Shown here piece after piece: positions 56,155-56,327 of a DNA stretch of 64,000 nucleotides. The stretch is from Legionellales bacterium (lineage in GTDB: Bacteria > Pseudomonadota > Gammaproteobacteria > Legionellales > Legionellaceae), in assembly GCA_027449905.1 (NCBI GenBank), contig DAIDKT010000075.1:28263-92262 (forward strand), in the 5' to 3' direction. The notes beneath the pieces are model-generated. The model made no database searches. It was not told the DNA's origin and was given only the letters and a program-made list of their open reading frames with translations. Every line of letters starts with the position of its first letter. The first letter of the stretch is position 1. Position numbers and translations under genes: made by a program.

Positions 56155-56186
56155 GCCGAACAAATTTAATTTGGAGTCGTGATCCA

Positions 56187-56298
56187 GGCATTGACCGCCC
56201 TTCCGACCAAGCTCTTTGTTGGGCCAAGACTCAACCTACTCAGAGCACGTAGACTGGGCCAAGGCCCAGCATTTATGGACGGAACGGCGGCCAATGCC
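56187..56298. mobile_element. family-1 MITE-like 112-bp palindromic element, intergenic copy flanked by a perfect 8-bp direct repeat GTGATCCA (56179-56186 and 56299-56306)
   Basis: Terminal inverted repeat GGCATTGACCGCC / GGCGGCCAATGCC, long imperfect internal palindrome and a target-site-duplication-like flank. Second copy at 39705-39816. Confidence 0.85.
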
Positions 56299-56327
56299 GT
56301 GATCCACATTTAATGATTATACAGAGC

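Follow-up and report, generated by a model that had tools for sequence, protein, structure and literature searches.

The 112-bp palindromic element that precedes metN in this Legionellales genome is a genuine MITE. Most probably, it is one copy of a family of about 25 members derived from an insertion sequence (IS) encoding a DUF6399 protein, which inserted into the 5′ leader of metNIQ and has persisted there as an immobile fossil. The window, that is, the whole stretch of DNA that was analyzed, spans 64,000 nucleotides of contig C75 of the source assembly (G000), and the features on which the argument rests are located within it as follows (both copies of the target-site duplication were read directly from the sequence):

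39705-39816, minus strand: sibling MITE copy inside a 663-aa ORF (38524-40515), with a duplication matching at 6/8 positions (CAAATAAC / GAAATATC)
55129-56154, minus strand: metN, which encodes the ATPase of the methionine ABC transporter and leads the series metN-metI-metQ
56179-56186: metN-proximal copy of the target-site duplication, GTGATCCA; its 8-bp register is specific family-wide
56187-56298: 112-bp MITE at metN, 93% identical to the family consensus and less diverged than any other genomic copy
56187-56209, plus strand: 23-bp terminal inverted repeat (TIR), GGCATTGACCGCCCTTCCGACCA, matching the G058 IS end at 21/23 positions
56215-56273: REPIN-like core, a pair of GTAG-type REP hairpins in inverted orientation (…GGGCCAAGACTCAACCTAC / GTAGACTGGGCCAAGGCCCAG), 9 bp apart
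56276-56298, minus strand: 23-bp TIR (reverse complement GGCATTGGCCGCCGTTCCGTCCA), matching the G058 IS end at 20/23 positions
56299-56306: ligase-proximal copy of the target-site duplication, GTGATCCA
56316-56344, minus strand: predicted metNIQ promoter, with -35 box TTGAAT (56344-56339), 17-bp spacer and -10 box TATAAT (56321-56316)
56328-58421, minus strand: acetoacetate-CoA ligase gene, the last codons of which overlap the -35 box

All genes at this locus are encoded on the minus strand. The element is separated by 32 bp (56155-56186) from the metN ATG at position 56154 and by 29 bp (56299-56327) from the TAG stop codon (56330-56328) of the upstream ORF, 58421-56328, which was identified as acetoacetate-CoA ligase with a score of 908 bits, above the curated cut-off; these spacings agree exactly with the initial annotation. 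The element starts with GGCATTGACCGCC and ends with GGCGGCCAATGCC, its termini being complementary at 12 of 13 positions, and the perfect 8-bp duplication reported around it is indeed present on both sides. At a single site, such 8/8 identity of the flanks has a chance probability of 1.5e-5. Searches against Rfam yielded no meaningful match to the element (the best hit was a miRNA model with E = 0.58), a blastn search of a plasmid collection matched nothing, and an exact-protein look-up of MetN found no record.

Searches of the source assembly (2.09 Mb, 41% GC, 118 contigs) with BLAST and nhmmer uncovered about 25 loci of the family distributed over 20 contigs, including approximately 11 full-length copies (110-115 bp), three copies of 77 bp, one of 45 bp, and approximately eight one-ended fragments. 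An 8-bp flanking duplication is present in all 15 two-ended copies, and each octamer is different; most are AT-rich, five are perfect, and the others match at 5-7 of the 8 positions. In the 8-bp register, 102 of 120 flank positions (85%) are identical, compared with 35-44% at any other assumed duplication length between 4 and 11, and when left and right flanks were re-paired in 10,000 shuffles, 102 identical positions were never attained. Thus, no two-ended copy is devoid of a flanking duplication. The initial annotation had also considered that GTGATCCA might be part of the conserved ends of the element; given that the 15 duplicated octamers all differ, this is ruled out, and GTGATCCA represents duplicated target DNA lying outside the element. 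The remaining hallmarks of MITEs are equally apparent: the element is shorter than 300 bp, has no coding capacity of its own, and is bounded by TIRs and a duplication of fixed length but variable sequence, with copies dispersed through the genome, and its TIRs are shared with autonomous IS that generate the same duplication, as seen in G058, G055, L179, and G215, and in a stump on contig C41 of the source assembly. The earlier proposal of a non-autonomous element mobilized by a transposase is accordingly borne out by the TIRs and 8-bp duplications across the family and by cognate IS with equal ends and equal duplication length in related genomes.

No two copies in the source assembly are identical, their identity to the consensus ranges from 79% to 93%, and the family as a whole looks old and inactive. 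Of all copies, the one at metN deviates least from the consensus; its duplication is intact and, judging from this sequence comparison, it looks the youngest. The sibling copy within the window (39705-39816), oriented opposite to the metN copy, has a decayed duplication and is 90% identical to the consensus, and is therefore older. Most copies are found close to the ends of genes, at varying positions.

Several members of the family merit separate mention. The sibling copy leaves the 663-aa reading frame open (112 + 8 = 120 bp). The 77-bp variants (C114:17630-17706, C109:24411-24487, and C60:46311-46387), in which the two REP hairpins are fused into one, carry 8-bp duplications matching at 7/8 (C114), 5/8 (C109), and 8/8 (C60) positions; either the short form itself transposed or one and the same deletion recurred. 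A truncated copy at C75:150916-151019, ~58.6 kb past the end of the window, overlaps the 3′ end of murF, such that the last ~5 codons and the stop codon of the murF frame are inside it. A pair of TIR matches at C75:148437/151019 resembled a 2.6-kb element; this candidate was rejected because its interior corresponds to smc-zipA-murF, indicating that the left match is due to chance. Multi-copy repeats recovered in a self-megablast of the source assembly were likewise rejected as IS, being NRPS and tuf duplicates.

Full-length copies consist of two 23-bp TIRs (GGCMTTGACCGCCGTTCCGNCCA) around a pair of GTAG REP hairpins, and the family consensus reads GGCATTGACCGCCGTTCCGACCA-AGCTCT-[TTGTTGGGCCAAGGCCCAACCTAC]-TCAGAGCAC-[GTAGGCTGGGCCTTGGCCCAGCA]-TTTTTGGACGGAACGGCGGTCAATGCC. 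The bracketed units, TTGTTGGGCCAAGGCCCAACCTAC and GTAGGCTGGGCCTTGGCCCAGCA, are GTAG-tagged palindromes in inverted orientation, which corresponds to the layout of a REPIN (element positions 29-87). The 112-bp element folds with a predicted energy of -72.6 kcal/mol (z = -6.75 relative to shuffled controls). Across 11 copies of the MITE, no covariation was found that would point to selection on the structure; the absence of compensatory variation is better explained by a palindromic master copy decaying neutrally than by structural selection.

The nature of the core brings up the alternative that the element is a REPIN and owes its mobility to a RAYT (REP-associated tyrosine transposase), not to a cut-and-paste transposase. 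Indeed, in our comparison set of 206 genomes from 45 genera of the order, in which the source assembly is the sole genome of its genus, the REP is present in 72 genomes and 25 genera, often as exact 25-mers, and in G010 and G188 the REP doublet is located 150-800 bp away from a Y1_Tnp (RAYT-like) gene. However, every two-ended copy of the MITE has an 8-bp target-site duplication, and HUH/Y1 transposition is not known to produce target duplications; an element that makes such duplications is thus not a plain REPIN. Furthermore, the outer 23 bp are common to an IS and to MITEs that lack the REP, and the sole Y1 gene of the source assembly, on contig C64, is flanked by unrelated inverted repeats. 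Mobilization by a RAYT is therefore extremely improbable. What is specific to the transposon is confined to the outermost 23 bp at either end. The C64 locus (G000:C64:2140-2925) contains a single Y1 (HUH) transposase gene with flanking inverted repeats CTCCCTAACGGTCACGGTTCGGG, and related repeats of ~300 bp are found on C101 and C38; together, these look like a second, unrelated system of the RAYT/TIRYT type.

The distribution of the element among relatives is consistent with this division into ends and core. The full-length, REPIN-bearing MITE is found in only two of the 206 genomes, namely, the source assembly and G095, the sequence of which matches a Lake Pavin Legionellales MAG and carries a single copy with the perfect duplication CTTTTTTT. 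The same TIRs, accompanied by 8-bp duplications, enclose unrelated interiors in G022 (an uncultured Legionellaceae MAG), in G058, and in one metagenome contig, where the duplication is TAAAAACG/TAAAAATG. The recurrence of the same 23-bp ends around unrelated interiors indicates that the ends constitute the functional module, with the interior as cargo.

A mismatch-tolerant scan of the order for the MITE end led to the parent IS family, so that the cognate IS with matching terminal repeats, for which the initial annotation had suggested a search, was found in related genomes (ends matching at 20-22 of 23 positions, with 8-bp duplications). The parent IS is ~1.85 kb long; the product of its sole conserved gene is a protein of ~555 aa, with an HTH region at the N terminus and a Pfam DUF6399 domain at the C terminus. 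In G058, we detected 19 TIR matches, nine of which (six left ends and three right ends) are found at a distance of 35-55 bp from a contig end, the signature of a multi-copy IS breaking a short-read assembly. The two types of ends differ on the inside (left, GGCCTCGACCGCCGTTCCGACCACATGATCAC…; right, GGCCTTGACCGCCGTTCCGACCACCGCTACATCATG…), and one insertion could be reconstructed across two contig ends, yielding the perfect duplication GAATGTTT in one of 18 pairings (~3e-4 by chance). G055 contains an internally deleted copy of 1,038 bp that retains both TIRs and a DUF6399 ORF (E = 6.5e-38). The nearest full-length homolog, P0094 (57% identical), is located on L179 (metagenome contig Ga0619460_06413238), where positions 121-1960 represent a complete IS of 1,840 bp with a single 555-aa gene and 26-bp TIRs GGCCTCGACCGTCGTTTCGTCCACC, which match the G058 end at 19/23 positions. 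A more distant relative is present in G215 as two 4.48-kb copies that are 99.9% identical (L176:1862-6344 in G215:C2, and L177 in G215:C3); both are bounded by perfect 23-bp TIRs GGCCTCAGTCATCGTTTCGCCA, and one has the perfect duplication GATATTCG, the other a 5/8 match. No target-site duplication was found at the G055 copy or the L179 IS. Compared with the ends of the source-assembly type, the complete IS copies match at 19/23 (L179) and 14/23 (G215) positions, and none with exactly these ends was recovered. Between their TIRs, the G215 copies also carry passenger genes, namely, a reverse transcriptase (RVT_1, with matches to Drt3a and Drt2), which is either group-II-intron-like or of the defense type, and a 445-aa ORF that matched no family.

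Within the source assembly itself, no intact parent IS was found. What remains is a right-end stump of ~200 bp (G000:C41:18159-18354), 77% identical to the G055 end and including the last 54 transposase codons; its TIR, GGCATTGACCGCCGTTCGGACCA, matches the MITE consensus at 22/23 positions, with the GGCATTG variant common to the local MITEs. None of the TIRs lies near a contig end, and there is thus no sign of unassembled IS copies. Since only the stump is retained, the MITEs appear to be fossils and the metN copy immobile. In agreement with the earlier statement that the window contains no transposase, four transposase families that were searched genome-wide have no genes on contig C75, a result that pertains to those families rather than to each ORF of the window. 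Adjoining the stump is a repeat of ~125-140 bp (C41:18343-18483) that recurs at the ends of contigs C9, C67, and C3, and at C23:29757-29883; it probably belongs to a further multi-copy, assembly-breaking element, as one of the ends of the latter.

Two catalogued IS families were considered as parents and rejected. The terminal GGCnnTG of the MITE matches the ends of the ISPna2 group. Elements of the IS1 and IS1595 families share the 8-bp duplication with the metN MITE and have GGnnnTG / GGCnnTG ends; for IS1595, this duplication length is documented (PMC8101967). However, IS1595, which had been guessed from the combination of GGCnnTG and the 8-bp duplication, has other TIRs (…GCnTATC…GTTGAC…) in every element of this family found in the order, including the sole copy of the source assembly, on C58, with TIR TAACCGCTTATCTGC…, whereas IS1 is absent from the source assembly and its ends elsewhere in the order are GGTATTGCC… and similar. 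The C58 element (G000:C58:252-1700), which we take to be ISSod11-like, has 26-bp TIRs TAACCGCTTATCTGCTTTACTCCAGC and a transposase frame that extends ~130 residues beyond the usual end.

The DUF6399 family comprises more than 4,600 matches of ~560 aa in metagenomes, mostly on contigs of 1.8-2.1 kb and labeled as hypothetical or DUF6399. From the genetic context, conserved acidic residues, and weak rve and IS481 signals, we infer that the protein is a transposase. Its N-terminal region contains HTH motifs of the transposase type, and alignment A3 of the family displays three invariant acidic residues, D156 (DETF), D210 (SDEG), and E478 (SSSxxEGRNG), candidates for the acidic triad that a DDE transposase carries on an RNase H-like fold. 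In the AlphaFold model (pLDDT 75.5), both aspartates are surrounded by a β-β-…-α-β-α arrangement, the putative catalytic core, where the confidence of the model is low. Comparison with NCBIfam transposase models gave nothing over threshold, a profile search of the PDB matched the HTH and nothing beyond, and a Foldseek search with this model, which is poor precisely at the putative core, returned helical noise and no transposase. DUF6399 is unmentioned in the literature searched, and the IS family may be uncatalogued.

Taken together, these observations suggest a scenario in which a DUF6399 transposase, supplied in trans, bound both 23-bp repeats, and the element was inserted into a staggered 8-bp cut at GTGATCCA, with gap repair giving rise to the direct repeat. 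The target would have been located ~4 nt downstream of the predicted metNIQ start, so that the promoter was left intact, and the whole element would be transcribed as the start of the mRNA, forming a predicted hairpin of ~120 nt with the start codon free. Extinction of the parent IS in this genome would have rendered the metN copy immobile.

The placement of the element within the leader follows from the position of the promoter. A single sigma-70-like site, TTGAAT-17-TATAAT, was detected in the region 55900-56600; it is on the metN strand, between the ligase stop codon and the element, and the predicted transcription start falls near 56309-56311, ~7 nt past the -10 box. G011, G006, and G016 retain the ligase-metN arrangement, as does G007 in part, and in each of these four a TATAAT follows the ligase stop codon; TATAAT is present upstream of metN in further relatives, too. 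The source assembly and G011 also have TGTATAATCA..AATG in common. Subtraction of the element and one octamer leaves a spacer of 53 bp, compared with ~50-80 bp in G016 and G006. With the promoter intact upstream of the insertion, the element would thus lie inside the 5′ leader, the duplicated octamer beginning at about +4.

This configuration is at odds with the initial annotation, in which the element either carries or displaces the metNIQ promoter or serves as a terminator or attenuator between the ligase gene and metN. The idea was not without grounds, given that the TIR includes TTGACC, a -35-like hexamer, and that a strong hairpin is located between two genes. However, the TTGACC hexamers point inward and have no matching -10 box, and a search of the element itself for promoter-like sites gave none. 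The sole promoter-like site of the region is intact upstream of it, with a -10 box conserved in relatives. With regard to termination, no hairpin followed by a T-run was found on either strand in 55900-56600, the flanks of the element being TGGATCACGAC and GTGATCCACATT; hence, the combination of a GC-rich hairpin and an ensuing U-run that defines an intrinsic terminator is lacking. We regard a role of the element as promoter or terminator as highly improbable.

The predicted leader consists of 4-7 free nt, the ~120-nt hairpin, 24 nt, and an unsequestered AUG (-74.9 kcal/mol, z = -5.8). An effect of this hairpin on metNIQ expression is possible; our best guess is that the consequences of the insertion are neutral to mild, mediated by mRNA stability or processing. 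By analogy with 5′-terminal stem-loops and with co-transcribed Correia and ERIC elements, the hairpin might stabilize the mRNA or undergo cutting by RNase III, a neutral effect being at least as likely.

Six related genera have a conserved, structured leader of ~100-190 nt between the TATAAT box and metN (L013:1348-1386 in G011; also L015, L016, L017, L018, and L025). Its motif, GCGCCGATTTGAA..CTCAGCTTGCGGGCGC … CGGCTAAAGCGGG, includes a compensatory change from G-C to A-U in L018, and an extra hairpin appears to precede the 3′ pseudoknot strand. The match to the SAM-II riboswitch (RF00521) is below threshold, scoring 18 bits where the gathering cut-off is 36 (E = 0.042, 191-nt search). No such SAM-II-like motif was found anywhere in the source assembly and, as far as can be told, metNIQ lost this control in the present genome independently of the MITE.

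Against this background, the element could have been exapted, the 5′-terminal hairpin being retained and now controlling the metNIQ mRNA, either by protection from 5′-end-dependent decay or as an RNase III processing site, which might partly compensate for the missing SAM-II-like riboswitch. In favor of this reading, the element starts ~4 nt past the predicted transcription start and is predicted to form a stable hairpin with a free AUG, the six related genera have a SAM-II-like leader at the position in question, of which this genome has none, and co-transcribed Correia and ERIC elements alter mRNA fate. The covariation term of +0.19 nevertheless shows no sign of structural selection, and the metN copy resembles the other members of the family, most of which are near gene ends in no consistent position. 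Exaptation is thus unlikely, and we favor insertion of a DUF6399-IS-derived MITE that has since been a fossil. A broader proposition can be put forward as speculation that we hold less probable than its negation: that an uncatalogued IS family encoding a ~555-aa HTH + DUF6399 protein leaves behind the MITE, that its 23-bp ends have repeatedly wrapped host hairpins, including REPINs, in Legionellaceae, and that the metN copy was co-opted as a 5′-terminal hairpin following the loss of the SAM-II-like riboswitch.

The metN MITE is ordinary as a phenomenon. The present analysis corrects the annotation of the locus, in that the repeat is part of the 5′ leader, downstream of an intact metNIQ promoter. 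It also connects the element with a widespread IS family that has no name as yet, and shows plainly that a TIR-type MITE can carry a REPIN as cargo. A large putative transposase family is currently annotated only as DUF6399 or hypothetical; if it were recognized, IS could be annotated better in many genomes and metagenomes. With 23-bp ends and a fixed 8-bp duplication, the family offers a transposition system that lends itself to testing.

Among known systems, Correia elements (NEMIS) of Neisseria and ERIC of Yersinia are likewise MITEs, ~100-150 bp long, co-transcribed, and forming long hairpins; the target duplication of Correia elements is TA, and they contain promoters that face outward, whereas no promoter was detected in the metN MITE. 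The REPIN/REP-RAYT systems (Bertels & Rainey 2011, PMC3116915; Di Nocera et al. 2013, PMC3733652) similarly feature an inverted doublet of GTAG palindromes, and the REP of the metN MITE is widespread, highly conserved across the order, and positioned beside Y1 transposase genes in two relatives; unlike REPINs, the metN MITE has additional 23-bp TIRs and the 8-bp duplication, which are hallmarks of DDE-type insertion and not of RAYT. Of the elements described so far, QMITE2 of Coxiella burnetii (Wachter et al. 2018, PMC5896051) comes closest, a small palindromic MITE with TIRs and an internal GTAG REP, from an organism that the same paper presents as a close relative of Legionella. Its flanking direct repeats are unique and measure 7-11 nt according to the abstract, or 7-9 bp for full-size copies according to the text. 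Both elements combine TIRs, unique direct repeats, and a GTAG REP, exist in full-size and reduced forms, and reside for the most part between genes or at the 3′ ends of genes, occasionally overlapping an ORF in frame (PMC5896051). The metN MITE differs in being 112 bp long, compared with 150-190 bp for QMITE2, and in having a strict 8-bp duplication and an inverted REP doublet (PMC5896051). The likeness described here is one of architecture, and the metN MITE parallels QMITE2 with its partner IS identified, whereas the sections of that paper available here do not name the partner of QMITE2 (PMC5896051).
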